From positions 3,293,845 through 3,357,844 of the forward strand of contig OY759724.1 in the NCBI GenBank assembly GCA_963662715.1: 64,000 bases of DNA. Direction: 5' to 3'. The notes beneath the pieces are model-generated. The model was not told the origin of the DNA and searched no databases. It saw only the letters and a list, made by a program, of their open reading frames with translations. Both the position numbers and the translations under genes were made by a program. Position 1 is the first letter of the stretch. Each line of letters opens with the position of its first letter. The DNA is from Candidatus Omnitrophota bacterium (GTDB lineage Bacteria; Omnitrophota; Gorgyraeia; Zapsychrales; JANLHA01). This document shows positions 16,335 through 48,500 of the stretch, in pieces.

Positions 16335-16448
16335 GATGTCCGTAATTTCAAAAAGGGATTTTCCTGTAAAATAATATATAAAACAATAATGTCGTCGAGA
16401 TTATGAAGTATAATAGAGGTGTCCGAATAAAAGAAAGGAGCCTCTTGA

Positions 16449-18044: not shown

Positions 18045-18143
18045 AAGATTGAAGGGCGTAAAATAAGTGCGCCCCAAAAATAATGCTCTTTGAAACTGGA
18101 CCAAAAGTCCAACGGCGGAAAAATACCGGGTTTTCAGACGGTA

Positions 18144-27612: not shown

Positions 27613-27616
27613 GACA

Positions 27617-29851: not shown

Positions 29852-29869
29852 AACGACACTCCTTAATGA

Positions 29870-31393
29870 CTATTCTTCTTTACCTTCTTCCTCTCCGGCG
29901 CCTTCCCCGTCTTCTAACACATCCTCCGCCGCCGGGATCTCTTCTTCATCATCAGCCCATTCCAGCTTAAAGGCAATCTCAAAAGCCGCCACATCCTTCC
30001 CCCGTTCCTTTTTGGCCGATGTCGATCTTGTCTTAACATTCTTGAACAACTCCGATTCTTCAAGCGCCGTAACGAAATTGAAAACCCGGGACATCGTTTC
30101 GGAAACACCGGTGATCTCAACGCTGCCGTTTTCTGTCATGCTGATGGACTGGAGATAAATTTCATCCGGGATAAGTTTATACAGGGTCGTCACAACTTCC
30201 AATCCGACCATACGGCTTTGCAAGTACCCCTTCATGATACGGGTCTTTTGCGCTTTACGGTCAAGCGCCAGGACTTTCTTCCGTTTTTCCTGATAGTCTG
30301 TCCGCAGGCGTTCAAGGTAGAGGTTATTGAAATGTTCCTTGCTGACGAAGATAAAAGCAAAAATAATAAAAATGAGAAAAGCTAATATTCCCGTCTTAAT
30401 GACCTGCCGGCCTTTTTCTTCGATGACCCGCTGGGTTTTAATTTCCTCCGGCGTCAGGTCAACCTTCATTTGCTCAAGGCTCCATCCGCAGCCGATTATA
30501 GTGAAGAAGGAATCGTCGTTGTACTCCGAAACAAGCTTCATCATCTCCGGCTGCCCCGCCTGGATGATATCCAGATAAGGCATCATCTTAATGTTGGCTT
30601 TCAGTTTTTCCTGCAGAAGCGGCTGCATCTCTTTCAGCGTGGCGTCATCGCTCGTTATAATAAACGTTTCCGGAAGGCGGTTAATATCCTCGTTCTGATA
30701 AGCTTCAACGGATTGACTTAACTCCATCAACAATTTGTCCCGCGCCTCGGCCCCTTCCTTAAGGAGGTGCGACAGACCGATAGGGATATGCCGGTACATA
30801 GCTACGGTTTTATTGGATTCGATCAGGAAAGACGTGTACGGGTTGGCCACATCAATGATCCCCAGGGGGATATCATCCTCTTTGAGGTTCATGGCTTTGG
30901 CATAAAAATGAGCCATGCCTTCCGGGGCGAAAAGGACCTTATCCACCTTAATACCCGCTTCATCAAGCACTTCCAGTTGTTTCTTCACGACGTTCCGGTT
31001 GACAAGAATCAACAGGACCTTGGTGTAATTACGCTGGAAAACGCCGATCTTAATATAGCCGACGAGGATCTCCTCTCGGGAGAAAGGCGTGTGCCGTCCG
31101 GCCTGCAGCTCGATAATGGACTGTATTTCCTCGGCATCCAAAGAAGGGATTTCGATGTTTTTTGTGATCACCTGGCTGGGAGGAAGAGTACAGATGGCCG
31201 GCGTCTTTTTGATATGGATATCCGCCAGGCAAGAATGGATTGTTTTGGCCAGCTCTTCTTCGGGGAGATCCCGCAGGTCCCCTTTGGTCACGTGAAGAAG
31301 TCTTTTATCAGACTCCTTGCCCCTGATCTGAGCGACCTTGATGGAGACATCATCCAGACTGACGATAACGGTTTCTTTATCTTTGCTAAACAT
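29870..31393 (-). CDS. GspL-like protein (PilM-like cytoplasmic actin-fold domain, TM segment, PilN-like periplasmic domain), 507 aa
   Basis: The call rests on domain order, on the position between gspK and the gspM-like gene, and on an acidic C-terminal tail. Confidence 0.5.
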   Translation of the reverse strand: MFSKDKETVIVSLDDVSIKVAQIRGKESDKRLLHVTKGDLRDLPEEELAKTIHSCLADIHIKKTPAICTLPPSQVITKNIEIPSLDAEEIQSIIELQAGRHTPFSREEILVGYIKIGVFQRNYTKVLLILVNRNVVKKQLEVLDEAGIKVDKVLFAPEGMAHFYAKAMNLKEDDIPLGIIDVANPYTSFLIESNKTVAMYRHIPIGLSHLLKEGAEARDKLLMELSQSVEAYQNEDINRLPETFIITSDDATLKEMQPLLQEKLKANIKMMPYLDIIQAGQPEMMKLVSEYNDDSFFTIIGCGWSLEQMKVDLTPEEIKTQRVIEEKGRQVIKTGILAFLIFIIFAFIFVSKEHFNNLYLERLRTDYQEKRKKVLALDRKAQKTRIMKGYLQSRMVGLEVVTTLYKLIPDEIYLQSISMTENGSVEITGVSETMSRVFNFVTALEESELFKNVKTRSTSAKKERGKDVAAFEIAFKLEWADDEEEIPAAEDVLEDGEGAGEEEGKEE

Positions 31394-31418
31394 AGATCAT
31401 GAGCCTAATGTTAAAAAA

Positions 31419-32462
31419 TCATAATTCTTTCCAATAGACAATTTTTTGCTCCGGCGCGAAAAAAACGCAGGAAATGAGTTTTTTGCCCTTGGACGACGCT
31501 ATAGTGGCGTAACTGTGAATACGGTAATAGTACGATTGTGTTCCCAGCCAGCCCTGGGCATTGAGTTCCTCGATAAGCTGAATATCCTCCTTTTCTATGG
31601 ACTTCTGAGCCGCCATAAAAGACACGAGTTGGGGGAGATCAGGGAAGACCATATCATCGGCCGTCCAGTCCATCCCGTCGACCCCTCTTCTTATAGCCAG
31701 AAAACGGCTCACAAAAACATCAGGGAATCCCAGCGACAGCAGGACAGGACGGGATGCGGTATTTATGTTCACCTTCCCGCTGCCGAAGACCGTCAGGTAA
31801 GGAAGGAGTTGCCCCGCCACTTCGGGAGTCCAGCCCCGAAGAAGAGCTAATTCGTGCGTGGTCTCAAAATTCGCCTTTTTCTCCGGGAAAGGGAACTCCA
31901 GGTTATCATAATACTCGTCACTGTAGAACCCGACGATTTCACTGTCGCCGTACTTGCGCCAGTCAATAACGGCCTGAGCCAGATCGTTAGCATCCTCCTC
32001 ATCCATAGACAAAACAGTCTGGATCAGCTTTGTCAGGACATCTTCATCGGCCTTGTTGATATTGATTCTTCTTTCCTCATCGGTAAAGCCGTATAAGACC
32101 CGTGCCCGGCCGGCCGCGGACTCTTCCTCTGAGCGGTATTTCAACTCAAAAGAGCCCGGCCCCCGGGAAGCATCCTTGAAGACAGCCGGGTTATTCATCC
32201 ACTGAATTCTCCGGACAGCAGGAGGCGTCCGGGTCCCCGCTTTATTCTTATGGGCTTCATAAAAAATATACATCGCCTTGGCGACTCCTGATTTAGCCAG
32301 CCAATAAAGGTCCTGGCGCTGTTCCAGCCGTGAAACGAGCGTCATCTTTTGACGGATCTGCGCCCCGAGGCTGACGGTCAGAAAGCCCAGCAGGCCCAAC
32401 GCCCATATGGCCAGAATAAGAATCGTCCCTTCTTTTTTCTGCAGCTTACGCATGTTCATCAA
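31419..32462 (-). CDS. gspK: GspK-like minor pseudopilin (347 aa)
   Basis: An N-terminal hydrophobic segment (GTILILAIWALGLLGFL) and a helix-hairpin-helix-like GSGKVNINTASRPVL motif are characteristic of GspK. Confidence 0.6.
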   Translation of the reverse strand: MMNMRKLQKKEGTILILAIWALGLLGFLTVSLGAQIRQKMTLVSRLEQRQDLYWLAKSGVAKAMYIFYEAHKNKAGTRTPPAVRRIQWMNNPAVFKDASRGPGSFELKYRSEEESAAGRARVLYGFTDEERRININKADEDVLTKLIQTVLSMDEEDANDLAQAVIDWRKYGDSEIVGFYSDEYYDNLEFPFPEKKANFETTHELALLRGWTPEVAGQLLPYLTVFGSGKVNINTASRPVLLSLGFPDVFVSRFLAIRRGVDGMDWTADDMVFPDLPQLVSFMAAQKSIEKEDIQLIEELNAQGWLGTQSYYYRIHSYATIASSKGKKLISCVFFAPEQKIVYWKEL

Positions 32463-33100
32463 CCCGCAATAGGCAGATCCAGTAAACGTGTTAATGTTCT
32501 TGTATCCCCGTTCCGTTCCCGGACCTGTATTTCAACAAGCACGGCAACCGGCAAAACATGATCGAGCTCTTTCTTCCAGATATAATCCTGTCCGTCAGGG
32601 ACAAGATAGGACAATTTCAGCGCCTGAACCGGGGAGACCACAACGCGCTGGGTCCCGAATTCCGATTTTAAGGCCTGGCTGTAATTCGCCTGTTTGCGGA
32701 TAACCGCATGACTCGCCTTGTCATATAAGTATTCAACTTTTCCGATCTGGTCAACATAGCGGACAGAGTGCTCGGATATCTTCTTGTCCTGCGGGACACG
32801 CACCAAGGTCGGGATGGAAAGCCGGGTTTCTTCCCCTTCAAAATTAAACTGAGAAAAAGCAAAAGCATTACGCAGGTCAACGCCTATTTTATCCAGGAAA
32901 ACAATGGCATCCTCCTCAAGGGTAAAATGCCGGCTCAACTCCCACAATTTAAGGCTGTTGACAACAGACCGGTTAACGGCCAGCCCGATCATGGCCAGGA
33001 TTGAAATGACAAGAGTCATTTCAATGACGGTAAAGGACCTGAGCGAACGCCTGTTTTCCGATATTTTATCGCGGTGAATTCTCATGACACCATCCGTCAA
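32459..33100 (-). CDS. Minor pseudopilin (GspJ-like) with a prepilin-type N-terminal domain, 213 aa
   Basis: It contains ...LRSFTVIEMTLVISILAMIGLA with the conserved Glu at +5. The residue at -1 is Ser rather than Gly, which is non-canonical. Confidence 0.5.
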   Translation of the reverse strand: MTDGVMRIHRDKISENRRSLRSFTVIEMTLVISILAMIGLAVNRSVVNSLKLWELSRHFTLEEDAIVFLDKIGVDLRNAFAFSQFNFEGEETRLSIPTLVRVPQDKKISEHSVRYVDQIGKVEYLYDKASHAVIRKQANYSQALKSEFGTQRVVVSPVQALKLSYLVPDGQDYIWKKELDHVLPVAVLVEIQVRERNGDTRTLTRLLDLPIAG

Positions 33101-33549
33101 AAATAAGACAAGTACGCTGACCGGCTGAGCCTGGCCGTCCGGCTGCGTTCCGGCCAGGAAAGGGTCATCTCCATCTCATAAAAATCTTTTTCCGTGTTGA
33201 GCGGTTTCATGCTCACCGAAAGCCGGAACGGAATCAGTCGCTTGTTTAATCTGACCGCATGCACGGACCCGTTTAAGTCCTTGGGGAGAGCGGCCCCGCT
33301 CTTAAAAAGGTATTGTATACGGGTAGCCTGATGATCAAGATAATTCTTGGCAAACAACCGGTTCGTTAAATGCTGCTGATAATCAAAAGACAGCAGCATC
33401 GCCTTGTGGATCATCACGAGGCCGAGGGAGAAAACGACAACGGTGACCATAACTTCGAAGAAGGTAAACCCCCGCCTCTTCAGACAACGCAGCTCCCCGG
33501 CGCTATCTTCATTCCCAGTTAACGATATCATCCTCGTCCGTATTTTCAT
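33097..33549 (-). CDS. Minor pseudopilin (GspI/H-like) with a prepilin-type N-terminus
   Basis: It contains ...KRRGFTFFEVMVTVVVFSLGLVMI. I moved the start from the track ORF start (33645) to an internal Met to avoid a 137-nt overlap with gspG. Confidence 0.45.
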   Translation of the reverse strand: MKIRTRMISLTGNEDSAGELRCLKRRGFTFFEVMVTVVVFSLGLVMIHKAMLLSFDYQQHLTNRLFAKNYLDHQATRIQYLFKSGAALPKDLNGSVHAVRLNKRLIPFRLSVSMKPLNTEKDFYEMEMTLSWPERSRTARLSRSAYLSYF

Positions 33550-33952
33550 CCTTCCCCTTTGAATAAAGGTCATAATCCATGCGATGATCCCCGGGAGAGC
33601 GATACTCGTATACCTGCCCCCAGGGATCAACGGGCCTTTTTTCAATATAAGGACCGTTCCAGTTCGTCGGGACCGGACTGCTCGTCGGCTGCTTCAGCAG
33701 GGCTTCCAGGCCCTGGCTGGTCGTCGGGAAATGGCCATTATCCAGCTCGTACAATTTCAAAGCTGTCGCTAAATTGGTCTCTATATCCGCCTTGGCCACG
33801 GCCTTTTTCGCTTGCTCTGAACGCCCGGTTAACCGGGGGACAACCATGGCGGCCAGCGCCCCGATGATAACCACCACCATAATGATTTCCACCAGGGTAA
33901 AACCTGCCTCTCGGGATCTATAAGAATTTTTCCTGCAAGGCATTCCTTTCAT
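33509..33952 (-). CDS. gspG: Major pseudopilin GspG
   Basis: The leader MKGMPCRKNSYRSREAG precedes FTLVEIIMVVVIIGALAAMVVPRL; the downstream sequence ...ADIETNLATALKLYELDNGHFPTTSQGLEALL...NWNGPYIEKRPVDPWGQVYEYRSPGDH..DYDLYSKGKDENTDEDD is a strong GspG signature that includes the Ca-binding loop. I moved the start to the internal Met at 33952. Confidence 0.85.
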   Translation of the reverse strand: MKGMPCRKNSYRSREAGFTLVEIIMVVVIIGALAAMVVPRLTGRSEQAKKAVAKADIETNLATALKLYELDNGHFPTTSQGLEALLKQPTSSPVPTNWNGPYIEKRPVDPWGQVYEYRSPGDHRMDYDLYSKGKDENTDEDDIVNWE

Positions 33953-33996
33953 TTTCGTATCACCTCTCTCCCGTTGATTCATCATAATCTCTAAAA

Positions 33997-34857
33997 TTAC
34001 CGCCCATCCATCATGGACGACTGTTTCATAAACGAGATCCATTTTCTTTCAAGGTCATTCAAATCCTTGATCGTGCTGGGATACACGCGTTGAAGGGCGG
34101 ACTCAAAATCCCGCCCGTCGCGTATCTGACGGCAAAGCCGGCCAAAGGCATCACTGCCGTGCTTTTTAATCAGGAACTCTACGATGGAAAGACTTTGAGC
34201 GTAAAAAACCGCAACCTTAAGAGGATCCGTTTCCTGCTGTATATCCCAGATCATCAGATGTTCCAAAGGGATATATTGATCCTGGGCAAGAAAAGACCGC
34301 ATGATTTTAAATGCTGATTCACTTTTGCCGGCCTCATAGAGCTGCGCGATCCCTTCGTCAAACCACATCGGGATACGCTCCGTGTCCGGGATGAAATCAT
34401 GCAGTATTAAATGACCGATCTCATGAGGCAAAAGCCCGTCAAAGAATTCCTGGTCCTGCCGATACGTCACGATGACCCTCCCCAGCAGAGTATAGGAGTC
34501 TTTGTTGACATACCCGGTGGACCATTCAGGCTGTCCGGTCTGCTCGGAGAAAGTCTTCCGGTCCGGGAACAGATAAATGTTGACCCGCTGCTCCCAGGTC
34601 CAGAAATTACCGTAACGGGTAAACCCGATCTTAGCTCCGATGTTCTGATAGTAACGTTCCGCCTCCCGGAGGATCCGCTGGGCTGTTTTTTTATCTTTCG
34701 TTTCCTGGAAATGCACAACAAAATGCTTGTCTTTTAACTGCTGCCAGTCTTCTTCCTGAAAAACATTTTGGAGGCGAGGTTCTCCATAAACTGTCCCCGG
34801 AGAAAGGACCAGCACCTGCCAAAGAACAAAGATATGAATCATTTTTCTGCGCACCAT
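33997..34857 (-). CDS. Secreted zinc metalloprotease (HExxH, peptidase MA clan), 286 aa
   Basis: A signal peptide and an LLPHEIGHLILH zinc-binding motif are present. The gene is embedded between gspF and gspG. Confidence 0.5.
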   Translation of the reverse strand: MVRRKMIHIFVLWQVLVLSPGTVYGEPRLQNVFQEEDWQQLKDKHFVVHFQETKDKKTAQRILREAERYYQNIGAKIGFTRYGNFWTWEQRVNIYLFPDRKTFSEQTGQPEWSTGYVNKDSYTLLGRVIVTYRQDQEFFDGLLPHEIGHLILHDFIPDTERIPMWFDEGIAQLYEAGKSESAFKIMRSFLAQDQYIPLEHLMIWDIQQETDPLKVAVFYAQSLSIVEFLIKKHGSDAFGRLCRQIRDGRDFESALQRVYPSTIKDLNDLERKWISFMKQSSMMDGR

Positions 34858-34874: not shown

Positions 34875-36086
34875 CTATCCGGCAAAAACATCCAGCTGAA
34901 AAATGGGTAATAACATCGCGATAACAATAAACCCGATAACAGCCCCGATAATAACAATCATAAGCGGTTCCAGCATTGTCGTCATGATCTTAATCTTTTC
35001 ATTCGTCTCCTGCTCATAATTTTCTGCGATATCCAGCAAAGTTTCCCCTAACAGCCCTGATTCCTCTCCCACACTAATAAGATGACTGACCATTTCAGGG
35101 ATCATCGGGGATTCCCCCAGAATTTCCCCAAAAGACCGCCCGGCCACCAACTCTTCCTGACACGTTTTAAGGTGATCCTGAAGGATAGAATTGCCGGTCA
35201 CCGGGATGGACAGTTGAAAAGCCCTGACGACAGGGACTCCGCTCTGAATAAGTAAACGCAAGGCCCTGGCAAAACGGGCTATCTCAAGTTTCAGCAGAAA
35301 GTCCCCCCAAAAGGGAGTTGCCAGACTCAATTGATTAAGGAATAACCGTCCCGCGGAGGTTCTCGCCCACTGCTTCAACAGGGCCGTCAGAACAATGACC
35401 GCCACCCCGCAGAAAAATCCGTACTGCAGCAAGAAATCACTCATATTCATAACCATCAGGGTCGGCGCCGGGAGGGTTTGGTTAAAATTCTCATATAACG
35501 CCGTTATTTTCGGCATCACGTACGTTAAGGTGAAAATGATGGACGCGATACCAAAAACAAGCATAAAAAGAGGGTACGCAAGCGCAGACCGCACTTTTGA
35601 TAGGATCTCTTCCTGCTGTTTCTGATATTCCGTGATACTCAGCAAAGACTCCTTCAAACGGCCGCTTTCTTCCCCGGCCTTCACGAGAGTGACATATAAC
35701 GGAGAAAATATTTTGGGATAATCCGCAAAGGATTCTGAAAGCGATTTACCTCCCCGCACCTTCGCCTGAATGGAATCGATGATAAAACGGGAATACGAAT
35801 TCTTTGTCTGCTGGCTTAAGACTTCCAAGGCTCTTAAAATCGGGACCCCGGCCTTGATTAAACTGACGAGCTGCTTGCTGAAAAGGTACCGCTCCTTTGA
35901 GCTGATCCGCCCGAAACGGTACGCCTTGCGGTCCGGCGCCGTTACCGGGGAGATTTCTTCAACGGAGACAGGAACGTAGCCCAGCTGATGGACCTTTTCA
36001 ATAGCGTCTTCCCGGCTTTCCGCTGTCAGACGTCCGACGATTGTCTCAGCGTTTTGTTGTTTGGCTTTATAATGATATTGTGGCAT
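34875..36086 (-). CDS. gspF: T2SS/T4P inner-membrane platform protein GspF (403 aa)
   Basis: Two GspF repeats are present, with ...LVKAGEESGRLKESL... and ...LISVGEESGLLGETL... motifs, and three TM segments. Confidence 0.85.
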   Translation of the reverse strand: MPQYHYKAKQQNAETIVGRLTAESREDAIEKVHQLGYVPVSVEEISPVTAPDRKAYRFGRISSKERYLFSKQLVSLIKAGVPILRALEVLSQQTKNSYSRFIIDSIQAKVRGGKSLSESFADYPKIFSPLYVTLVKAGEESGRLKESLLSITEYQKQQEEILSKVRSALAYPLFMLVFGIASIIFTLTYVMPKITALYENFNQTLPAPTLMVMNMSDFLLQYGFFCGVAVIVLTALLKQWARTSAGRLFLNQLSLATPFWGDFLLKLEIARFARALRLLIQSGVPVVRAFQLSIPVTGNSILQDHLKTCQEELVAGRSFGEILGESPMIPEMVSHLISVGEESGLLGETLLDIAENYEQETNEKIKIMTTMLEPLMIVIIGAVIGFIVIAMLLPIFQLDVFAG

Positions 36087-36120: not shown

Positions 36121-38337
36121 TTAACTTTCCTGGTTTTGCTGCTTCCCTTTTTTCCGTTGTTCCCGGACAAAATGATTAATATGAACACGGTCGGCGCTCG
36201 AAATATCCAGATAATAAACGACAATGTTAAACATCGCTGAAAGGTTGTCGTCTTCAACACGGCAAACCCGGGCCAGACAATTGACCCGTTTTTCCGCTCC
36301 CGGCAATTGGATGCGAAGGTCAACGATAGCCCCGACCGGGAGCGTGTAGCCGGAGACGAAACGCAGTCCTCCGGCACTGATGTCGCGCGTCACAGAAGCG
36401 TGCTCGACCTGGTCATAAAACAATTTCAACGGGTTTTTCGGATCCTGCCGTACGATCGAGTACCGTATGCTGACCTTCTCCTCGGCCCGGTCATAAGCGC
36501 GTGAATTGTAGTCATCCTTGACCGAAAGGATTTCCTTGTTGATGACCCGGACATTTTCCGGGTTTTTGTTTAACCCTGTGACGATCAGGCCCTGCGACAA
36601 AGCCGGAGCTTCTTCACCTTGACTGAGATCATCTTTCACCGTAACGTTAATGACTTCGCCGGGGGTCGTAATCCCGGCCAGGACTTTTTGCCACCCATTC
36701 TGTCTCAATGTCGTCATACCCCGTTTAACGGCCAGCCGTTTAATCTGATCTGCACGCTGTTTCTCCAGGATGGCGCCACGGATATCTTCATCAATAACCA
36801 GAATCTCATAAAGAGCCGTGCGGCCGTAATACCCTGTCTGATGACAGAAATCGCATCCCCGTCCCTGAAAAATTTTTATGTGACGCGGGTCCGTGATCCC
36901 CAGGGAAGCAGCCATCTCCTGCCTAATCTCCTGGGGCTGACTCAAATCTTCTTTTTTGCATTGAGGACAGATCGTCCGCACAAGCCGCTGCGCTATAAAA
37001 GCCTCTATGCTGGAAGACACCAGAAACGGCTCCATCCCCATTTCTATAAGCCGGGTGATTCCGCTGGAGGCATCATTGGTATGCAGGGTCGAAAAAACCA
37101 AATGTCCTGTTAAAGCCGTACGGATCGCGATTTCCGCTGTTTCAAGATCCCTGATCTCCCCGACCATGATAATGTCCGGATCATGCCGCAAAACACTTCT
37201 CAATCCCGTGGCAAAATCGAACTCCACCCGGGGATTGATTTGAATTTGCGTAATCCCCTCCATCTCATATTCCAGGGGATCCTCCAGTGTCACGATCTTT
37301 CTGTCGGGGGAATTGATCTCATGAAGACAGGCATAAAGCGTCGTTGTTTTTCCGCTGCCGGTCGGGCCGGTCACTAAAATGATCCCGTGCGGCCGTTTGA
37401 CCAGATCACGGAAGACATCCAGGTTTTTCTGATCCAGCCCCAATTTCTCAAGGCTTAACAACATAACATTCGTGGGAAGAATACGGATCACCATACTTTC
37501 GCCATGAGAAGTCGGGATCGTGGAAATACGAAGATCCAGGGTCTGTTCTTTGGTTCTAACGACCGCGCTGCCGTCCTGAGGAAGCCGTTTTTCAACAATA
37601 CTGAGGTTGGCGATGATTTTAATTCTGGATATGATGGACGGCAGAAAACCTTTAACCGCCTGAGGAATATTGGCGTCGAGCAAACGTCCGTCTATGCGGT
37701 AACGCACCCGGACAATATTCCGGTAAGGCTCAATATGAATATCGGTCGCCCTTTTCTTATGGGCTTCCAGGAGAATCTGGTTAACTAATCTTGTTATCGT
37801 AACTTCATCGGCACCTTCGTCCAGATCCTCAACCGCTGTTTCCGCCTGTCTTGAAGGGGCCGATTCCCTGGACAACCGCTCAAGAGTATCAGCCGCCAGG
37901 CCGTAATATTTATTCAGAGCGTTCATAACATCAGCTTCCCTGGCAAGAACGATTTTCGGCTCCAAGGACAAATGCACCCGGATTTCATCCTGGGATTTGA
38001 CATTCAGAGGATTGGCACAAGCCAAAAGAACGCTTTTGTCCGTTATCTTAACGGGCATAAACTTGTAATACCAGGCGAACCGGACAGGAACCCGGGTCAG
38101 GACCGTTTGATCGACAGGATAACTCTGCAGGGAAATAATTTCAAGCTGATACAAATCCGAAAGAATCTGCAAAAGCTGATCTTCGGGAAGGATTTTCTTC
38201 TCCACGAGAATATCCTTAAGAGAAACAGGGGAATTCTCAACAGCGCGCAGCTGTTCTTCAACAAGCGCCCCTGTTAACAGGCCTCTTTTAACAAGTTCTT
38301 TAGCGAGTATTTTATCGGATTGCTTCATCGGGAACAC
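36121..38337 (-). CDS. gspE: T2SS ATPase GspE with a C-terminal PilZ domain (738 aa)
   Basis: It has an N-terminal T2SSE_N domain, Walker A (VTGPTGSGKTTTLYA), an Asp box/Walker B (IMVGEIRDLETAEIA) and a His box (LVFSTLHTNDA). The additional ~115-aa C-terminus carries the PilZ signatures RYSIVR (RxxxR) and DISAGGLRF (DxSxGG). Confidence 0.9.
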   Translation of the reverse strand: MFPMKQSDKILAKELVKRGLLTGALVEEQLRAVENSPVSLKDILVEKKILPEDQLLQILSDLYQLEIISLQSYPVDQTVLTRVPVRFAWYYKFMPVKITDKSVLLACANPLNVKSQDEIRVHLSLEPKIVLAREADVMNALNKYYGLAADTLERLSRESAPSRQAETAVEDLDEGADEVTITRLVNQILLEAHKKRATDIHIEPYRNIVRVRYRIDGRLLDANIPQAVKGFLPSIISRIKIIANLSIVEKRLPQDGSAVVRTKEQTLDLRISTIPTSHGESMVIRILPTNVMLLSLEKLGLDQKNLDVFRDLVKRPHGIILVTGPTGSGKTTTLYACLHEINSPDRKIVTLEDPLEYEMEGITQIQINPRVEFDFATGLRSVLRHDPDIIMVGEIRDLETAEIAIRTALTGHLVFSTLHTNDASSGITRLIEMGMEPFLVSSSIEAFIAQRLVRTICPQCKKEDLSQPQEIRQEMAASLGITDPRHIKIFQGRGCDFCHQTGYYGRTALYEILVIDEDIRGAILEKQRADQIKRLAVKRGMTTLRQNGWQKVLAGITTPGEVINVTVKDDLSQGEEAPALSQGLIVTGLNKNPENVRVINKEILSVKDDYNSRAYDRAEEKVSIRYSIVRQDPKNPLKLFYDQVEHASVTRDISAGGLRFVSGYTLPVGAIVDLRIQLPGAEKRVNCLARVCRVEDDNLSAMFNIVVYYLDISSADRVHINHFVREQRKKGKQQNQES

Positions 38338-38370: not shown

Positions 38371-40771
<2,401 letters not shown>

Positions 40772-40783
40772 AGCCTTTCATCC

Positions 40784-41542
40784 TTAACTCAGGATGCCCT
40801 TCTCCAATTTCTCTTTAACCTGTTCCCCGGTGTTATTCAGGGCGCTTTTTAAAGTGCCGTCCAGCGACAGGGTTCCGAATTTGCACAAAATACCTCCGAT
40901 AATACTTTGGTCAACTTTTTTGTCGATCTGCATATCCCTGTTAAGCCGCTTATTTAAAATATCGCGCAATCTCTGTTCCAGTTTTTCATCCAAAGGACGG
41001 GCCGTCATGATTTCGATGGTGGTCACATCGTCAGCGATCATCCCGGTATCGACATTTTCCATATCATTGAAGAATTCCGAAATAATCGTCTCATCCAGGG
41101 CTTCAAAAGAACGGCTCGTGAAGAATTCTTCCATGAGCAGAATACAGTAATCAATGGCTTGCAGCTTCATCTCCTTTTCCAGTTCCAGCCGGACCTGGTC
41201 TTTCGTGTGATGGGCTTTATTGATAATTTCTTCCGCGTCCTGGCGCGCCTTTTGAATAATCTTCTCCCTTTCCTGGTTCGCTTTCTCCTCCGCGTCGTCT
41301 TTCATCTTAGCCACCAGGGCATCGGCTTCCTTTCTGCGCGTGACCAACTCTTCATTCGCTTCCTTGATTTTGGCATTCAGTTCGGTTTGTTTATTCCGGA
41401 CGTCTTCCGTCTCTTTGTTCAGCCGGCCGACAGCCGTTTCCGTGTGCCTTGACATATAACGGATAAAAAAGAACCCCAGCACCCCGGTAAAAATCATCCC
41501 AAAAATCAATGCTTTAATAAGTAACATGGTTGCTTCACCCAT
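40784..41542 (-). CDS. F-type ATPase b subunit fused to a delta (OSCP) domain, 252 aa
   Basis: An N-terminal TM segment and a long charged helix (b-like) are followed by the C-terminal DKKVDQSIIGGILCKFGTLSLDGTLKSAL, which matches the delta C-terminal motif. Confidence 0.5.
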   Translation of the reverse strand: MGEATMLLIKALIFGMIFTGVLGFFFIRYMSRHTETAVGRLNKETEDVRNKQTELNAKIKEANEELVTRRKEADALVAKMKDDAEEKANQEREKIIQKARQDAEEIINKAHHTKDQVRLELEKEMKLQAIDYCILLMEEFFTSRSFEALDETIISEFFNDMENVDTGMIADDVTTIEIMTARPLDEKLEQRLRDILNKRLNRDMQIDKKVDQSIIGGILCKFGTLSLDGTLKSALNNTGEQVKEKLEKGILS

Positions 41543-41559
41543 AACAATCTCCTCATTGT

Positions 41560-41787
41560 TTATTCAGAAACTAATGCTTTAAAAAATGTTAATATCAGCG
41601 CAAAGGAAACGGTTTCAACAATAACTAGCTTCAGTAAAATACTCATTTGTATAGCCGGTGTCTTGCTGGGGGCCCGGCCTAACCGGTTAATAAGCTGCAC
41701 CCCCACCCAAGCGGCGCCGATACAGGGGATAATAATCAAAATCCAGAAAATGATAATAAAAACCAGGGCAACATTCGCCATAAACAC
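41560..41787 (-). CDS. ATP synthase c-subunit paralog (75 aa, divergent)
   Basis: It is a two-TM hairpin with a loop LGRAPSK and a conserved carboxylate in helix 2 (VIVETVSFALIL). Confidence 0.55.
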   Translation of the reverse strand: MFMANVALVFIIIFWILIIIPCIGAAWVGVQLINRLGRAPSKTPAIQMSILLKLVIVETVSFALILTFFKALVSE

Positions 41788-41805
41788 CTCTTCCGATAAT
41801 GACTC

Positions 41806-42027
41806 TTACTTTCCAAAAAGCTGAAAAATAACTAATATCGCGATAACGGAAATGGCTTCGACAAAAATAAGCATGACGACCATTCCCATAAAAATTTTCG
41901 ATGCCGCTGAAGGATTCCGGCTCAAAGCCTTAATAACAGCATACCCTAAAACAGCGATAACAATGGAAGGGCCCAAGACAGCGATCAACATAATGGAGAC
42001 AATTAATAAGGTTTCTGCCCACTGCAC
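41806..42027 (-). CDS. atpE: ATP synthase c-subunit (73 aa)
   Basis: The sequence ...ALSRNPSAASKIFMGMVVMLIFVEAISVIAILVIFQ has the RNP loop and the ion-binding Glu. Confidence 0.75.
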   Translation of the reverse strand: MQWAETLLIVSIMLIAVLGPSIVIAVLGYAVIKALSRNPSAASKIFMGMVVMLIFVEAISVIAILVIFQLFGK

Positions 42028-42097
42028 AACACAACTCCTTTTTCATCATTGTATTCAGAAAGCACGGATAGTCCGGCTATAACATGTTTCCTCTCGG

Positions 42098-42430
42098 CTA
42101 AAGGTGATGGACTTCATCATCCGAATCCGTAAGGATATCTTGATCTTTCTTCCCTTTCTTTGGACGGAAGCGTTCAATTTCTTCAACAAGCACAATGCAA
42201 TCGTTGGCGAAAAACTTAAGAATTCCGAACTTGATAGGCACGGCTTCCCGCCAATTGATGATGATATTACTTTGATTTAAGATTCCCAGGACCGGATAAT
42301 GATACGGCAATAATTCGTATTCTCCGGTGTCCCCGGAGAAAAAAACACTTTCAACCTCTCCCTGGTAAAGCAGAGCCTCGGGTGTCATAATGGAAATTTT
42401 AAATGTCGGACGGTAAGTCGTGCCGGCCAT
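42098..42430 (-). CDS. atpC: ATP synthase epsilon subunit (beta-sandwich domain only; C-terminal helices absent), 110 aa
   Basis: The sequence FKISIMTPEALLYQGEVESVFFSGDTGEYELLPYHYPVLGILNQSNII fits the epsilon N-terminal domain consensus. Confidence 0.55.
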   Translation of the reverse strand: MAGTTYRPTFKISIMTPEALLYQGEVESVFFSGDTGEYELLPYHYPVLGILNQSNIIINWREAVPIKFGILKFFANDCIVLVEEIERFRPKKGKKDQDILTDSDDEVHHL

Positions 42431-42447
42431 AAGCCCAAGGAATCTCC

Positions 42448-43992
42448 TTATTCTTTTTTCTTTGATGTGGCGCGGTCTAAAACATCAACGCCCACATTAC
42501 TGCTGTCCTCATCTGATTCAAACGACTCTTTCGGCCGTTTCGCGATGAGCTCTTCCAAATACTCGGCCAAAAGGTCATCCAGGATTTTCTTCATCTCGTC
42601 ATCCAGATCCCGTTTCGCACGCATTGTTTTTAAAAGTTCTTCATTCTTCCTCTTCACGTAGTCATAAATATCATCCTGAAAAGCGATAACTTCTTCAATC
42701 ATCATCTCATGTAAAACACGCTTATTGTAGGCATAAAGGATAATCACCAAAGACTCCATCGGAACAGGTTTCCCGGGGCCCTGTTTCAGCAACTCTGTCA
42801 AAATGCTCCCGGTCTTTAACTGCTGTTCAGCTTCTTCAGATTGACCGGATGTTTTCAACTTCGAGACACGCAAAACTTCCCGGTACTGCAGATACTCCAA
42901 ACGTAAAGGTCCGCTTAACTTCTTGATGATAGGCCACTGGACTTTACTTCCGACCCGGGAAACAGAAAGCCCCAGGTCAACCGCCGGTTTTTGTCCTTCA
43001 CCAAAAAGCGGAGCGCTGACCATGATTTGCCCGTCCGTCATAGAGACCAAGTTCGACTGAACGTATCCGGTAAGGTCTCCCTCGAGTGTTTCGACAATCG
43101 GCAAATGCGTCATAGACCCGCCGCCATGGTCTTTCGACAAATATGCTGCTCTTTCAACGAGTTTGGAATGTAGATAGAAAATATCCCCCGGGTAGGAATC
43201 ACGGCCCGGAGCGCGTTCCAACAGCAGGGAAATTTCCCGATAGGCCCAGGCATGTTTCGTAAAGTCATCAAAAACGACGAATACATCTTTCCCCTGGTTC
43301 ATAAAATATTCTCCGATCGCACAGGCAATGTAGGGGGCGAGGTACAACTGTCCCGGAGGCGCCGCTGCCGTAGCGGAAATAATACATGTATACTTAAAAC
43401 AATCTTTATCTAAAAAAAGCTGAACGACCTTCCCCAAGGAAGATTGGGCCTTACCGATACAGCAATAAACGCAAATAACCCCCGTATGTCTTTGGTTAAT
43501 AATCGCATCGGTGCCGATCGTCGTTTTCCCGGTCATTTTATCTCCGAGGATCAACTCCCTCTGCCCAAAACCTATCGGGATCATGGAGTCAATAACTTTG
43601 ATCCCCGTTTCAAGTGTTTTTTCCAAGATTCCACGCTGTAAGATGGAAGGGGCATCAATGAAAATCTGAGTATTCTTATTCGGTTTAAGCGGACCCAGCC
43701 CATCCATCGGTTCTCCCAGGGGATTAATGATGCGTCCGATGTAATTATCACCCACAGGAGTCGTAAAAGGCTCCAAAGTCGCCTTGGCTTTATCCCCGGT
43801 TTTTAACTGAGATTGCTGCCGGATGATGAGAACCTGGGCTTCATCCTCAGAAAAACCGATAATAACACCTAACGTGCCATATCCGAAACGGATGACCTGA
43901 CCGTTAATACAGTTCTTAAACCCTTCCACAATAACGATACAGCCCCGAATGACACGGATGGTTCCTTCTTCAGAGTACTTTAAATCACCCAT
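42448..43992 (-). CDS. atpA: F1 ATP synthase alpha subunit with an extended charged C-terminus (514 aa)
   Basis: Walker A (GDKMTGKTTIGTDAIINQ) and the alpha-type central domain are present. Confidence 0.85.
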   Translation of the reverse strand: MGDLKYSEEGTIRVIRGCIVIVEGFKNCINGQVIRFGYGTLGVIIGFSEDEAQVLIIRQQSQLKTGDKAKATLEPFTTPVGDNYIGRIINPLGEPMDGLGPLKPNKNTQIFIDAPSILQRGILEKTLETGIKVIDSMIPIGFGQRELILGDKMTGKTTIGTDAIINQRHTGVICVYCCIGKAQSSLGKVVQLFLDKDCFKYTCIISATAAAPPGQLYLAPYIACAIGEYFMNQGKDVFVVFDDFTKHAWAYREISLLLERAPGRDSYPGDIFYLHSKLVERAAYLSKDHGGGSMTHLPIVETLEGDLTGYVQSNLVSMTDGQIMVSAPLFGEGQKPAVDLGLSVSRVGSKVQWPIIKKLSGPLRLEYLQYREVLRVSKLKTSGQSEEAEQQLKTGSILTELLKQGPGKPVPMESLVIILYAYNKRVLHEMMIEEVIAFQDDIYDYVKRKNEELLKTMRAKRDLDDEMKKILDDLLAEYLEELIAKRPKESFESDEDSSNVGVDVLDRATSKKKE

Positions 43993-44023
43993 TTTGATAT
44001 CCCTTGTGAATATTCATACTTGA

Positions 44024-44060
44024 TAAAAAATTATAGCAAAAGGTGTGGCTGAAATCGAAA
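44024..44060 (-). promoter_or_regulatory. Candidate sigma70-type promoter with an extended -10 (TGcTATAAT on the minus strand) upstream of atpA
   Basis: The reverse complement of 44030-44038 is TGCTATAAT, about 38 nt upstream of the atpA ATG, and an AAGGGA RBS lies 8 nt before the ATG. No good -35 element was found. Confidence 0.3.
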
Positions 44061-44095
44061 ACAAATTCATTATTTTTCCGTCGACTAATCATCAT

Positions 44096-45478
44096 TTACT
44101 CCTCCGCAGCCCCTTCTTCTCCCGGTTTGGGAACGACCCGGATTCCCCCACCGTCTTTAACAGCGAGATCTTCTCCCATTTTCCCAGAGCGCTTCGCCCA
44201 CAGCACAAAATGAATGGTTGTGAATGTTGCGACAAAAATGATCGTCCCAAAAACAATCTTCCACGTCATGGTAACGGAAATCCCTCGCTTAAATATCGCA
44301 TCGGATAATGCGGACAGCCCTCGCAGCGCTTTTAAGCGCTGCAACACGTTTTGAACCTTTCCGACTTCTATATCTCTCAACTTTTTAGCCCGGACGATAC
44401 TCATCATTTTTTCTAATCTTTCGACATCCTTTTTCGCCTCATCATATCTCTTTTCATTCAGCCGAAATATTCCGATATGCTGTTCAATAGGCAATTCCAA
44501 AGCCTTTGATTCTTTGATGGCTTTGACCCTCTCCTGAATTTCTTCAAACAAATACGTGGCACTCTGTTCATATATTGTTTCCTTTAATTCCCCCATAGCG
44601 AGATCCGCCCTCACCTGCAGAGCCTCAGCCTTGTTCTGGGGGAAGTCCCATATATCTTTTATCAATATTTCATACGTCTTTTTTTCTCCGGGGTTAAACT
44701 TTTCTTCCTTTGTTAAGAACGCCTGTTTCTTTTTTTCATCAAACCGGACATCAAAATCCTTTTTCTCAACGATATCCCCTTCCCGCACCTCTGCCGGCAA
44801 ATAATGTTTATGTTTGATTTCCTTCAGCTCCTCATGCGGATTCTGAACCTCAATAATAAACTTAACCAGCTTTCTCTGCTCAATTTCATCCAAGGCTTTT
44901 GATTCGTGTTCAAGGTAATCAAGATCATAGGCATTGTTCCGGATTTTCTCCAGAGCGGCTTTATAAGCGCGGTATTCTTCGATACGACGGTCTATATTAT
45001 CGGAATAACTCTCCTGCTGGCCATAAATAAAATCAATGTCCTTGATCATCTGATCCCGGGCCTTGACCGCATAATCATAATTCTCACTGCCTTCCAGGAG
45101 TTTTAAATTCTCTTCAACCTGATTCTTCAGGACATTAATCTCTTCCTCCGTAATACGCCAGACATCTCTCACGACCACTTTAAAAGTCTTGGACTCTTTA
45201 GCATTAAATTGCATCTTCTTACTGACAAAATACAATCCCTTATCAACATCATAATCCACATCCAGATCACCTGTACTTACGATATCCTCCGGCTGCAATT
45301 CATCGGGCAGGTAGTACTTAACATCTATTTCTTTAGAGTCTGTTTCCGAAGCATTCACGGCAATAAAACGGATGGCAACCTGCGCATAAGCCAGCAGAGG
45401 CTGCACGAGCAAAAGGAGGAAAAACAGCCATGCGACAAACCTCTTCTTCATCCAATACATCATCTTCACCCCGGACAC
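44096..45478 (-). CDS. Secreted, C-terminally membrane-anchored protein with two internal ~75-aa repeats (460 aa); function unknown
   Basis: It has a signal peptide, a duplicated KYYLPDELQPEDIV.../KHYLPAEVREGDIV... module, a coiled-coil middle, and a C-terminal TM segment followed by an acidic tail. It sits between the giant gene and atpA. Confidence 0.45.
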   Translation of the reverse strand: MSGVKMMYWMKKRFVAWLFFLLLLVQPLLAYAQVAIRFIAVNASETDSKEIDVKYYLPDELQPEDIVSTGDLDVDYDVDKGLYFVSKKMQFNAKESKTFKVVVRDVWRITEEEINVLKNQVEENLKLLEGSENYDYAVKARDQMIKDIDFIYGQQESYSDNIDRRIEEYRAYKAALEKIRNNAYDLDYLEHESKALDEIEQRKLVKFIIEVQNPHEELKEIKHKHYLPAEVREGDIVEKKDFDVRFDEKKKQAFLTKEEKFNPGEKKTYEILIKDIWDFPQNKAEALQVRADLAMGELKETIYEQSATYLFEEIQERVKAIKESKALELPIEQHIGIFRLNEKRYDEAKKDVERLEKMMSIVRAKKLRDIEVGKVQNVLQRLKALRGLSALSDAIFKRGISVTMTWKIVFGTIIFVATFTTIHFVLWAKRSGKMGEDLAVKDGGGIRVVPKPGEEGAAEE

Positions 45479-45510: not shown

Positions 45511-48500
45511 CTATTCAGCACTTTCAAACCAAGTTTTAACCACGACTTCATCTGTCTCTATGGCTTCCTTCAGAGCATTCAATTTGGCATTAATCTCATC
45601 CAGTTTGGAGTATATCTTTTCATCTTCCCCGGCCTCTTCTTCCGTCAAATCCTCAACAGTCATGTCCGAATCCCCCAACCCTAAAGCCTCTGCCGCTTCA
45701 TTCACGAAATTCGTTAAAGTTGACAATATCTGGGAGGCCACGTTATTAGCTGAAACCTGCTCTTCCGAAATAGTCGTCATAGACGTTTTTAATTCCGTAA
45801 GAGTGGATTCCAATTGTTTAAGTTTGTTGTAAGTGTCCGGGCTCTGTCCGGCGGCACCCAGCTCATCCCGGATACTTTGGGCCTCTGTTAATGCTGCGCC
45901 CGCGCTGCTTTTGGCCGAATCCACATTCGTTTTGATCTCTTCCAGTTTACTCAACTCCCCAAAAACTGTTTCCGAAGACTCATCATCCTCATAGATTCCG
46001 ACCAGGACCTCTAAAGTATCCACATACTCAATAATTTCCTGCAAGTTACCAAAAACCGTATCTGCTGAAGACGTGTCTGTGGCTGTCCCAATAAGCGTCG
46101 TCAGGGATGTAATATTATCGTTAAGGGTGGTCACGTCCAAATCCTGTAAAGATTCAATAGCCGTAGTAAGCGCCGTAACGTCTAAACCGTTAAGAAGACC
46201 AAACAGTGTCCCGTCAGCCGCCGTATCAGCAGGATCCCCAATGTTATTATTCAGCGTCGTTACGGTTGTCAATATGGAGGCGACATTGGCGACCAAAGTC
46301 TGCGCATTGTCTGCTAAATAAGCGATGTCACTCCAATTAATATTTGCAGAAGTCATGGCAGATAAATCAGACCAGTTGATTCCCGCCGTAGATGTAATTC
46401 CCAAATCAACCCAGTTGACTCCTGCCCCCGTCATTTCCGTTAGATCCAGCCAGTTAACCGCAACATTTGTCATACTGCTCATATCTGTCCAATTGACGGC
46501 AGCAGACGACATGACAGCCAAATCCTGCCAATTAATTCCCGCATCGCTCATCACATCAATATCCAGCCAGTTAACTCCGGAGCCGGATAAAACTCCGATA
46601 CTGGACCAATTAACACCTGCCGATGCCATCACCCCGACATCCTGCCAGTTAACCCCTGCACGGCTTAGGCTGTTCATATCATTCCAATTAATACCGGCTC
46701 GAGTTAAATCATTAATCGATGTCCAATTAACACCACTTGTCGTGAGCGTCTGCATATCCTCCCAGTTGATCCCGGCCAAAGTCAAAGTACTTATATCATA
46801 CCAGTTGATGCCGGAAGACGAGAGAACTCCCAAATTCGTCCAGTTGATCCCTGAAGCGCTCATTTCATTAACATTATCCCAATTGATGCCGGCCTCGGAT
46901 AAAGAATCAATACTATCCCAGTTGATTCCCGTACTGCTCATAAGATCTATACTTGTCCAATTAATACCTCTACTTGTCATCACCTCAAGATCCTGCCAGT
47001 TAATTCCCACATCCGACATCACCTCGATATCCAGCCAGTTGATCCCCGCATCACTCAGCATATTGATACTGCTCCAATTGACTCCTGAATCACTTAACAC
47101 ATCAATGTCTGCCCAGTTGATCCCTGCATCACTTAACACATCAATATCTTTCCAGTTTATGCCGAATCCGCTCATTATACCTATATCTAACCAATTCACC
47201 CCGGCGTCGCTCATATCATTAATGCTTTCCCAGTTTATACCCGCATTAGCTAGTTCTCCGATATTTGTCCAATTAATACCTGTGGTAGACAGTTCGTTAA
47301 TATTATTCCAATTGATCCCGATATCCGACATTCTACCGATATCAGACCAATTAATACCTTGCGTTGACATTTCTGATATATTAGTCCAGTTAATATTTGA
47401 ACTTGACATTTCATCAATGCTGAGCCAATTAACTCCGGAATCTGATAATTCACTGATATTGGTCCAATTAATTTGCTGACTCGACAACACATCCAGATCT
47501 ATCCAGTTAATCCCCGCATCACTCATCTCGTTAATACTCAGCCAATTAATGCCTGTCTCACTCATAGAACTGATATCATTCCAATTAATACCACTACTGG
47601 TTAACTCCTCGATGTTATACCAGTTAACAGCAGCACTACTCATTACATCGATATCCAGCCAGTTGATCCCCGCTTCACTTAACACATCCAAATCCTTCCA
47701 ATTAATTCCCGCATCGCTTAACACGTCAATATCCAGCCAGTTGATCCCTGACGTACTCATAAGCCCTAGATGACTCCAGTTTATCCCCGTATCACTCATC
47801 ACATTGATATCCTGCCAGTTGATCCCTGCCTCACTCATGTCATTCACGCTTACCCAGTTGATCCCCATATCACTCAGAACATTGATATCCTGCCAGTTAA
47901 CTCCTGCATCACTTAATTCCGCAATACTCGTCCAGTTGATCCCCGTGTCCGAAAGCTCACTGATGTTCTCCCAGTTGATCCCCGTGTCCGACATCTCACT
48001 GATGTTCTCCCAGTTGATTCCCGTATCCGACAGCTCGCTGATGTTCTCCCAGTTGATCCCCGTGTCCGACATCTCGCTGATGTTCTCCCAGTTCACCCCG
48101 CTTGAGGACATCTCCCCGATGTTCACCCAATTGATCCCCGTCGTTGTCAATTCACTAATATTGCTCCAATTCACTCCGCTCGATGTCATCTCCCCAATAT
48201 TAACCCAGTTGATCCCCGTAGCACTCATATCCCCGATATTCACCCAATTGATCCCCATATCACTCATCACATTTATGTCCTGCCAGTTGATCCCCGTATC
48301 GCTCAGCACATCAATATCCAGCCAGTTGATCCCCGCATCGCTCAACACATCAATGTCCAGCCAATTGATCCCCGCGTCACTCATCACATTGATATCCTGC
48401 CAGTTGACTCCTGCATCACTTAATTCCGCAATACTCGTCCAGTTGATCCCCGTGTCCGACATCTCGCTGATATTCTCCCAGTTGATCCCCGTATCCGACA

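Follow-up and report, generated by a model that had tools for sequence, protein, structure and literature searches.

Analysis of a 64,000-nucleotide stretch of contig OY759724.1 (GenBank assembly GCA_963662715.1; the whole stretch is hereafter the window) from an uncultured Candidatus Omnitrophota bacterium revealed an assembly ATPase of the GspE/PilB family, belonging to a type IV filament machine that resembles type II secretion systems (T2SS) and type IVa pili (T4aP). This ATPase carries, within a single open reading frame (ORF), a C-terminal PilZ domain of the canonical cyclic di-GMP (c-di-GMP)-binding type, while the motif by which related ATPases sense the same ligand at their N-terminus is lost from its MshEN-fold domain. 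The preferred reading, to which we give a probability of roughly 0.7, is that c-di-GMP controls assembly of the pseudopilus or pilus via this tethered PilZ domain, which would have replaced the N-terminal sensor. The gene and the parts of its product are given below, and residue numbers throughout are those of the 738-residue ORF counted from the GTG at 38337.

36121–38337, minus strand: gspE/pilB-PilZ fusion gene, 738 amino acids from the GTG at 38337, with Pfam domains MshEN, T2SSE and PilZ
38149–38325, minus strand: ND0 four-helix bundle (MshEN_N-like), residues 5–63
38239–38310 and 38152–38223, minus strand: degenerate 24-residue half-motifs, residues 10–33 and 39–62, with a 5-residue spacer between them
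37894–38151, minus strand: ND1, residues 63–148
37813–37884, minus strand: disordered linker 1 between the N-domain and N2D/ATPase, residues 152–175
36652–37812, minus strand: T2SSE ATPase core (N2D plus C-terminal domain, CTD), residues 176–562
37342–37368, minus strand: Walker A motif GPTGSGKTT
36844–36969, minus strand: zinc tetracysteine C457/C460/C495/C498 (CxxC...CxxC)
36550–36639, minus strand: disordered, length-variable linker 2 that tethers PilZ to the ATPase CTD, residues 567–596
36124–36549, minus strand: PilZ module, residues 597–738
36487–36501, minus strand: RxxxR motif, R613-A-Y-D-R617
36448–36465, minus strand: R-YSIV-R, R625 to R630
36367–36384, minus strand: (D/N)xSxxG motif, D652-I-S-A-G-G657
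36187–36279, minus strand: family-specific conserved patches C687-L-A-R-V-C-R-V-E695 and Y708-Y-L-D-I-S-S-A-D-R717
36121–36123, minus strand: TAA stop codon

The span 36121–36520 is the 3' end of this single ORF and translates to residues 607–738 plus the stop codon, with both PilZ motifs inside it. The ORF as a whole matched PF05157, PF00437 and PF07238, and the claim of an earlier note on this DNA, that it encodes a GspE-type secretion ATPase with a C-terminal PilZ domain, was thereby borne out; the extension beyond the ATPase core, put in that note at about 115 amino acids, proved to be about 172 amino acids long and to comprise a linker of about 30 amino acids and a PilZ module of 142. The true start codon is likely the ATG at 38328 (M4), which lies 9 nt inside the listed GTG and would yield a protein of 735 amino acids, because the homologues open with M-[IMV]-K-Q and a GGGGTG stretch lies 9–14 nt upstream of this ATG.

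The PilZ profile PF07238 matched residues 634–725 of the full protein with 48.8 bits (E=9.7e-13), where the gathering cutoff is 22.5, and still gave 47.5 bits when the last 139 amino acids were searched alone. The assignment to PilZ is thus far beyond chance, and the profile search that the earlier note had proposed for the C-terminal end came out clearly significant. Conservation was counted in an alignment of the 120 best homologues, which are 53–100% identical. Both arginines of the RxxxR motif (R613 and R617; family consensus R[VI]YPR) were present in 120 of 120 sequences, and the motif also occurs in all 43 loci with a full-length gene, with its translation verified in the window. The (D/N)xSxxG motif follows 34 residues after RxxxR, and across the full-length loci the spacing stays constant, within 33–38 residues; its columns showed Asp in 110 and Asn in nine of the homologues, Ser in 119 and Gly in 120, and the motif is kept in 40 of the 43 full-length loci, the remaining three having NIGAGG (two loci of Ca. 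Aceula) or DISAAG (L030). The tails themselves are only 40–80% identical among homologues, yet both ligand motifs are essentially invariant. The residue preceding R613 is small (S/A/G), and a small residue in this place, in work on PP4397 and VCA0042, reportedly favours binding of one c-di-GMP over an intercalated dimer, which is taken here as a lead only.

The identification of the ligand residues in the earlier note was correct for one motif and not for the other. D-I-S-A-G-G, as named there, is the canonical (D/N)xSxxG, and its Asp, Ser and Gly were properly placed on alignment; R-YSIV-R, offered as the arginine motif, was rejected, since its spacing is RxxxxR and its second arginine, R630, varies across the homologues (R in 33, K in 26, H in 22 and E in 12). 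This segment forms beta-strand 1 of the barrel (strand 623–631 of the model), and the true pair, R613/R617, lies twelve residues upstream. The Pfam match does not include RxxxR because its alignment starts at profile position 11.

Structure prediction, which had also been proposed in the earlier note, returned a PilZ fold. The AlphaFold2 (AF2) model of residues 597–738, built with 38 sequences, had a predicted local distance difference test score (pLDDT) of 95.4 and a predicted template modelling score (pTM) of 0.87, and consisted of a seven-stranded barrel followed by a long C-terminal helix (positions 118–141 of the module). In a Foldseek search against the PDB, the top matches were all PilZ domains, nearly all solved with c-di-GMP, at a probability of 1.00; the best was MotI/DgrA (5VX6; E=8.5e-7, TM-score 0.65), followed by Alg44 (4RT0), 4XRN, BcsA (4P00), PA0012 (8U0I) and YcgR (5Y6G). 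A phmmer search of the PilZ tail against PDB sequences gave no match, and it was the fold search that supplied the relatives. By profile, motifs and fold, the domain is of the canonical c-di-GMP-binding type, binding itself being a prediction.

The ATPase core matched PF00437 with 443.5 bits and contains the Walker A and B motifs and the Asp and His boxes. The Walker A motif is invariant together with the catalytic columns in an alignment of 69 sequences, and so is the tetracysteine. Against the PDB, the core scored about equally with Geobacter PilB (5TSG, 422 bits) and Vibrio GspE (4PHT, 406 bits). Membership of the GspE/PilB family is clear, and neither subfamily cutoff was reached: the GspE equivalog TIGR02533 gave 571.7 bits, under its curated cutoff of 630.25, and the PilB equivalog TIGR02538 gave 551.7, under 675.65.

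At the N-terminus, the MshEN fold is retained and the MshEN c-di-GMP-binding motif is not. ND1 matched PF05157 with 57.3 bits as well as PilB, PilF and MshE N-domains in the PDB, and in homologues it is the surface that binds GspL/PilM and PilZ (PMC8389850). Residues 3–145 aligned to Vibrio cholerae MshE (5HTL) at E=2.6e-6 when residues 1–164 were searched alone and at 1.8e-5 with the full-length query; within this match, residues 3–76 are free of gaps, residue n of the query corresponding to residue n-1 of MshE, and the four ND0 helices (6–17, 23–34, 40–46 and 52–63) were modelled at a pLDDT of about 90 in the full-length AF2 prediction. The segment LAKELVKRGLLTGALVEEQLRAVEN aligns without gaps to MshE residues 10–34 (PDB 5HTL). 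As defined by Wang et al. (2016; PMC5013675), the MshEN motif is built of two halves of 24 residues each, with five residues between them. The 5-residue spacer is kept, as is the leucine scaffold L10, L25, L29, L39, L54 and L58, in which L25 is a conservative Val and the other five are still Leu. The ligand contacts, on the other hand, are replaced: MshE R9 by I, G11 by A, Q32 by V, R38 by S, G40 by K, G47 by K and Q61 by L. Motif I departs from the relaxed 24-mer given in that paper at positions 1, 3 and 24, and motif II does so at 1, 3, 10 and 24; the relaxed pattern matched 0 of 124 full-length relatives, column counts in the alignment of 120 homologues showed the same losses family-wide, and the NCBIfam model NF053729 (MshE-related c-di-GMP motif) scored 16.7 against a cutoff of 38. 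Single mutations at such contact residues markedly cut binding by MshE (PMC5013675), and XpsE and Xanthomonas citri PilB, with similar losses, do not bind c-di-GMP (PMC5013675; PMC8389850). Of the MshEN-like N-terminal stretch pointed out in the earlier note, the fold therefore stood, by the 5HTL alignment and PF05157, and the c-di-GMP site did not; as a second binding site the segment was rejected on the published motif and its absence from all 124 relatives. The ancestral N-terminal site appears to have decayed, the domain having been kept as a fold only.

The full-length AF2 model (69 sequences; pLDDT 83.5, pTM 0.56) showed folded domains split by disordered segments at 152–175 and 575–592. 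Both linkers fall below a pLDDT of 50, in linker 2 for residues 575–592, and alignment columns 571–596 are gappy and unconserved; as linker 2 is disordered in the model and gappy in the alignment, PilZ is regarded as a tethered module. The RxxxR loop sits at the junction of tether and barrel.

The fusion proved to be the rule in Omnitrophota. All 120 best database matches carry PF05157, PF00437 and PF07238, the named ones being Candidatus Omnitrophota metagenome-assembled genomes (MAGs), and the fusion was present in more than 220 protein clusters at 90% identity. When GTDB species representatives were scanned with the alignment of the tail, 45 loci were recovered, all from Omnitrophota or generically labelled MAGs, with Ca. 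Zapsychrus, Ca. Aceula and Omnitrophica WOR_2 among the named ones; the gene is complete in 43 of them, and in each of these PilZ and the Walker-A ATPase share one ORF of 723–761 codons. Gene order among the 45 loci is the same in essentially every one that is long enough: a giant gene, a gene without assignment, atpA, atpE, b/delta, atpG, atpB and gspE-PilZ, followed by gspF, a peptidase gene, gspG, two pseudopilin genes, gspK, pilMN, pilO and a TPR gene. An exhaustive HMMER search of the PilZ tail against 1.84 billion cluster representatives yielded 282 relatives at E<=1e-3, of which the long matches had the same three-domain architecture or were truncated copies; GGDEF-PilZ proteins with related PilZ domains were also among the matches. 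Two proteins of GGDEF-PilZ or GGDEF-AAA_16-PilZ type (P0264, 391 amino acids, and P0269, 611 amino acids) have PilZ domains that are relatively close to the fused tail. With just the PilZ tail as query, a word-indexed homology search returned six contig-end fragments only and was uninformative.

When the most divergent fusion (P0203) was used as query, two further groups were found. One is a second Omnitrophota clade, with a fusion of about 712–716 amino acids in a variant of the same locus. In this clade, a stand-alone MshEN protein of 155 amino acids is encoded directly upstream of gspE-PilZ (locus L049, 9534–10001, plus strand); its pattern, QLG..G..L..L..Q, a spacer of 5 amino acids and FLG..L..L..Q, is much closer to the c-di-GMP consensus, with both arginines and G47 missing, and the same locus holds several two-component genes and a second T2SSE ATPase. 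The other group is labelled Planctomycetes or Planctomycetota, and there the fused gene is an orphan outside filament clusters (L048, 10001–12166, plus strand; P0283–P0295). The family-specific patches are shared across the groups, which speaks for a single, ancient fusion and against several independent ones. In searches seeded with this PilZ lineage, the fusion was found only in Omnitrophota and in Planctomycetota-labelled MAGs. The earlier note's judgement of an uncommon fusion thus holds outside the Omnitrophota and fails within the phylum.

On these grounds, a sensor swap is proposed in which PilZ would take over from the decayed MshEN site. In this scheme, c-di-GMP would be bound by the RxxxR loop (R613/R617) on one side and by the DxSxxG turn (D652/S654/G657) on the other, and the ligand would order the loop and shorten or rigidify the tether, so that the barrel would move against the ATPase hexamer or the N-terminal ND0/ND1; this would switch the activity of the ATPase, or else the way in which it is coupled to the GspF platform and to the PilM-like partner, and with it assembly of the pseudopilus or pilus. 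In VCA0042/PlzD, YcgR and BcsA, the RxxxR loop serves as an interdomain switch driven by the ligand, and ordering of the tether with repositioning of the barrel would be expected here because this loop is the tether-barrel junction. The direct c-di-GMP control of the motor that the earlier note had proposed appears to be the best reading for the PilZ half of the protein, both ligand motifs being strictly conserved, and falls away as far as an input through MshEN is concerned. The ligand promotes the output of the PilZ-bearing BcsA and Alg44. Homologous ATPases are controlled by c-di-GMP through MshEN, and it promotes output in MshE and Myxococcus xanthus PilB (PMC5013675; 2024 PilB review). 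By analogy with these four proteins, high c-di-GMP would perhaps, at slightly better than even odds, activate or license the motor.

Several observations weigh against control by c-di-GMP as proposed. Pfam and tblastn detected no GGDEF gene in the window or, in the 45 loci, in the 10 kb on either side of the gene, and Pfam gave no EAL or HD-GYP gene in the window; the check for GGDEF and EAL genes suggested in the earlier note was therefore negative over these 64 kb. The patches CLARVCRVE and YYLDISSADR, which are as conserved as the ligand motifs (C687 in 118, C692 in 115, R693 in 120, E695 in 118, L710 in 120 and D711 in 119 of the 120 homologues), have no known role. In several Planctomycetota-labelled relatives, including a Ca. 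Brocadiia MAG, DISAGG decays step by step to DISATG, DISPTG or AISASG, and the patches CxxRxxRxE and YYLDIxS stay; the domain can thus outlast its canonical site, which hints at an additional, ligand-independent role. In the full-length AF2 model, finally, PilZ was not confidently docked on the ATPase (pTM 0.56), so that the allosteric route is conjecture. An unlikely alternative is that the fused PilZ is mainly a protein-protein adaptor, in which case c-di-GMP would have a minor role or none and the partner would be the protein's own ND0/ND1, the F-type ATPase or the giant protein. The patches are separate from the ligand motifs and survive where DxSxxG has decayed, the gene is in tight synteny with the F-type ATPase and the giant gene, and there are precedents in Xanthomonas PilZ and PA2960, which do not bind the ligand, the X. 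citri PilZ binding the PilB N-domain without c-di-GMP binding (PMC8389850). Non-binding PilZ domains are, however, typically without RxxxR and DxSxxG, whereas here both are essentially invariant, and invariant motifs in tails as divergent as these are the pattern expected from selection on ligand binding.

It is possible, though we would not favour it, that the sign of the effect is the reverse, with PilZ as a c-di-GMP-dependent brake whose ligand inhibits the ATPase or uncouples the platform, as YcgR and MotI do on flagellar motors. The closest structural match, MotI/DgrA, is a c-di-GMP-dependent motor inhibitor, and inhibition of motors by PilZ proteins is a general principle that counts in favour of this alternative; structural likeness to MotI, however, says nothing on the sign of the effect, and the promotion of output in MshE, M. 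xanthus PilB, BcsA and Alg44 speaks for the opposite sign. Very improbable is a dual sensor, in which the MshEN-like bundle would still bind c-di-GMP or another dinucleotide via a divergent site and PilZ would be a second input. The bundle is confidently folded and keeps the leucine scaffold, helix periodicity and 5-residue spacer of the MshEN 53-mer, and binding modes of MshEN type are varied in PilF (PMC11731258). Against this stand the family-wide replacement of seven key contacts, including both Arg, both Gln and the two glycines G40 and G47 that became Lys, the low NF053729 score, and the fact that XpsE and X. citri PilB do not bind after similar losses.

The proposed control by a fused PilZ was compared with known systems. 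MshE, PA14_29490, M. xanthus PilB, Clostridium perfringens PilB2 and Thermus thermophilus PilF share with the window protein the ATPase family, the N-terminal fold and the logic of c-di-GMP acting directly on the motor. MshE-type ATPases sense through the N-terminal 53-residue double motif, however, whereas this motif is degenerate here and the predicted sensor is the C-terminal PilZ barrel, whose RxxxR/DxSxxG binding mode is wholly unlike that of MshEN. BcsA and Alg44 likewise bear a canonical PilZ on an export machine, with fold matches in 4P00 and 4RT0, and in BcsA it is also C-terminal to the catalytic unit; their output is a glycosyltransferase or co-polymerase and not a hexameric secretion ATPase. 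In BcsA, an autoinhibitory gating loop is released, and a counterpart here would be conjectural. YcgR and MotI (DgrA), the latter the best fold match, are c-di-GMP-dependent motor regulators too, but are free two-domain proteins that act in trans on flagellar stators or rotors and are not fused to a motor ATPase. In X. citri, PilZ docks on ND0/ND1 of PilB in the PilB-PilZ-FimX complex (PDB 7LKM, 7LKN and 7LKO), and this PilB is without the MshEN c-di-GMP residues (PMC8389850). The window protein resembles it in the loss of these residues and in its predicted regulation by a PilZ fold, and its N-domain matched 7LKM at E=2.7e-4 (residues 1–164) and 0.0017 (full-length). The X. citri PilZ, in contrast, is a separate protein without RxxxR and DxSxxG that does not bind c-di-GMP, the ligand being sensed by the EAL domain of FimX; here PilZ is in cis, canonical and in no need of a FimX-like partner, and docking on ND0/ND1 is hypothetical.

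The locus itself has a precedent, as Omnitrophota loci of the kind 'type-4a pilus + symbiotic F-type ATPase + big ORF' have been published (PMC10066038; bioRxiv 10.1101/2023.11.21.568195; 2026 preprint), and the window is an instance of them, with the giant gene, the F-type ATPase genes and the filament machine. These papers mention small stand-alone pilZ genes and a giant-protein GGDEF, and do not mention the PilZ-ATPase fusion or the decay of MshEN. GGDEF domains, which point to c-di-GMP synthesis in the phylum and so count in favour of the proposed control, have been reported in Omnitrophota giant proteins (bioRxiv 10.1101/2023.11.21.568195), and the GGDEF-PilZ proteins with related PilZ domains count on the same side; no GGDEF domain was detected in the giant gene of the window. 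A joint reading can be built from these pieces, which we consider doubtful as a whole: an ancestor of Omnitrophota and related lineages of the PVC (Planctomycetes, Verrucomicrobia and Chlamydiae) group would have swapped the MshEN site for a fused PilZ, phylum-wide, so that a predation or attachment super-locus, made up of a giant surface protein, a non-respiratory F-type motor and a T2SS/T4P-like filament, would be under direct and possibly local c-di-GMP control from giant-protein GGDEF domains, with PilZ docking in a ligand-dependent manner on the vacant ND0/ND1 as a cis version of Xanthomonas PilB-PilZ.

The three-domain architecture is visible in precomputed Pfam annotations, in which the proteins are named generically only. 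No PilZ fused to a GspE/PilB ATPase was mentioned in accessible surveys of PilZ architectures, the MshEN paper (PMC5013675), the 2024 PilB review, a 2023 review of c-di-GMP evolution, the Omnitrophota papers or full-text searches, and an earlier passing mention in the subscription literature or in InterPro architecture tables is possible. Already known are the control of GspE/PilB ATPases through MshEN, the control of PilB by PilZ and FimX in trans, PilZ on BcsA and Alg44, and the type of locus; new are the fusion to the motor in cis, the accompanying loss of MshEN and the phylum-wide conservation in a lifestyle locus, which do not amount to a new principle. The known routes by which c-di-GMP reaches type IV filament motors are the N-terminal MshEN site and a trans-acting PilZ/FimX adaptor, and control by the fused domain, if true, would be a third, with a canonical PilZ in cis and the MshEN route decayed in the same lineage. 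It would also be a natural experiment in allosteric regulation of a hexameric secretion ATPase from its C-terminus, and would offer a testable handle on regulation in the Omnitrophota, a phylum of uncultured, ultra-small bacteria that are probably predators or parasites. The fused gene lies in their most conserved lifestyle locus, beside giant genes and a Mycoplasma-like F-type ATPase; the protein being soluble and modular, binding and ATPase assays are feasible in a heterologous host despite the organism not having been grown.

In the window, gspE-PilZ lies in a co-directional cluster on the minus strand. The filament-machine genes downstream of it are as follows, assigned by Pfam and in the order of the 45 related loci.

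34875–36086, minus strand: gspF/pilC platform gene (PF00482, 197 bits, two repeats), starting 34 nt past the gspE-PilZ stop
26701–34857, minus strand: filament-machine cluster beyond gspF
33997–34857, minus strand: MA-family peptidase (Peptidase_MA_2), between gspF and gspG
33509–34042, minus strand: GspG major pseudopilin (PF08334, 111.9 bits)
33097–33645 and 32459–33100, minus strand: two prepilin-like proteins with N_methyl motifs
31419–32462, minus strand: GspK (PF21687)
29870–31393, minus strand: PilM-PilN fusion
27617–29851, minus strand: PilO/GspM-like protein of 744 amino acids, with a weak GspM hint
26701–27612, minus strand: TPR protein

The set GspE, GspF, GspG and GspK with minor pseudopilins, among which there is a weak hint of GspJ, is thus encoded in one cluster, as in a T2SS, and the PilM-PilN fusion and PilO-like protein stand in for GspL/M. 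Pfam matched neither the secretin GspD nor GspC anywhere in the window; a gene for the secretin may lie in another part of the genome. On the side of T4aP, PilM/N/O-like genes are present, the major pilin is of T2SSG type, and none of PilT, PilQ, PilP or a prepilin peptidase occurs in the window; clusters of this kind have been classed as T4aP using TXSScan (Seymour et al. 2023, PMC10066038). The MA-family peptidase gene is found in most related loci and is absent from about eight. The 744-amino-acid protein is much longer than the usual PilO/GspM, and its central part lies in a stretch of 61% GC (28–30 kb), where long overlapping ORFs in other frames suggest a low-complexity or repeat region.

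Directly upstream of gspE-PilZ are the genes of the F-type ATPase and the giant gene, assigned by Pfam or NCBIfam and by synteny.

38371–45478, minus strand: F-type ATPase cluster
38371–39891, minus strand: F-type ATPase beta, with an acidic N-terminal extension of about 50 amino acids
39920–40771, minus strand: F-type ATPase gamma
40784–41542, minus strand: b/delta fusion
41806–42027 and 41560–41787, minus strand: two c-like ORFs
42098–42430, minus strand: F-type ATPase epsilon
42448–43992, minus strand: F-type ATPase alpha
44096–45478, minus strand: ORF of 460 amino acids, unmatched in Pfam and NCBIfam; related loci have it conserved at this same place, after the giant gene and before atpA
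45511–63945, minus strand: giant gene, 6144 amino acids, with at least 15 Lysostaphin_N (PF25533) repeats

The order alpha, epsilon, two c-like, b/delta fusion, gamma and beta is unusual for F-type ATPase genes and is the same in the 45 loci. The alpha and beta subunits exceeded the NCBIfam atpA and atpD cutoffs, and pilus-adjacent clusters of this kind have been classed as non-respiratory, 'symbiotic' type 2/3 F-type ATPases (Seymour et al. 2023, PMC10066038). A cluster altogether devoid of Fo subunits was considered and rejected in part, as the two c-like ORFs are present and an a-subunit was not recognised. The giant gene heads the conserved locus, a homologous C-terminus being encoded upstream in nearly all related loci; in the window, the giant-gene region has an extreme negative GC skew of about -0.5 over 48–64 kb.

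On the other flank, an ORF of 510 amino acids (24954–26486, minus strand) has no Pfam or NCBIfam match and no counterpart detectable in the related loci. A CitMHS transporter gene (15102–18911) is split by a transposase gene of insertion sequence type (16449–18044, plus strand; DDE_Tnp_1_6/DUF772) into halves that cover profile positions 1–215 (18144–18911) and 237–336 (15102–15575), and the GC skew is locally positive at this site. A teneurin-like protein of 2771 amino acids (1641–9956, minus strand), with TTR, FN-plug, NHL, YD-shell and RHS-repeat domains, is by its predicted domains a bacterial polymorphic-toxin or teneurin-type shell protein. Just past the filament cluster and on the opposite strand, a gene for an STT3/PglB-type oligosaccharyltransferase of 852 amino acids (22380–24938, plus strand) adjoins a trypsin-like peptidase gene.

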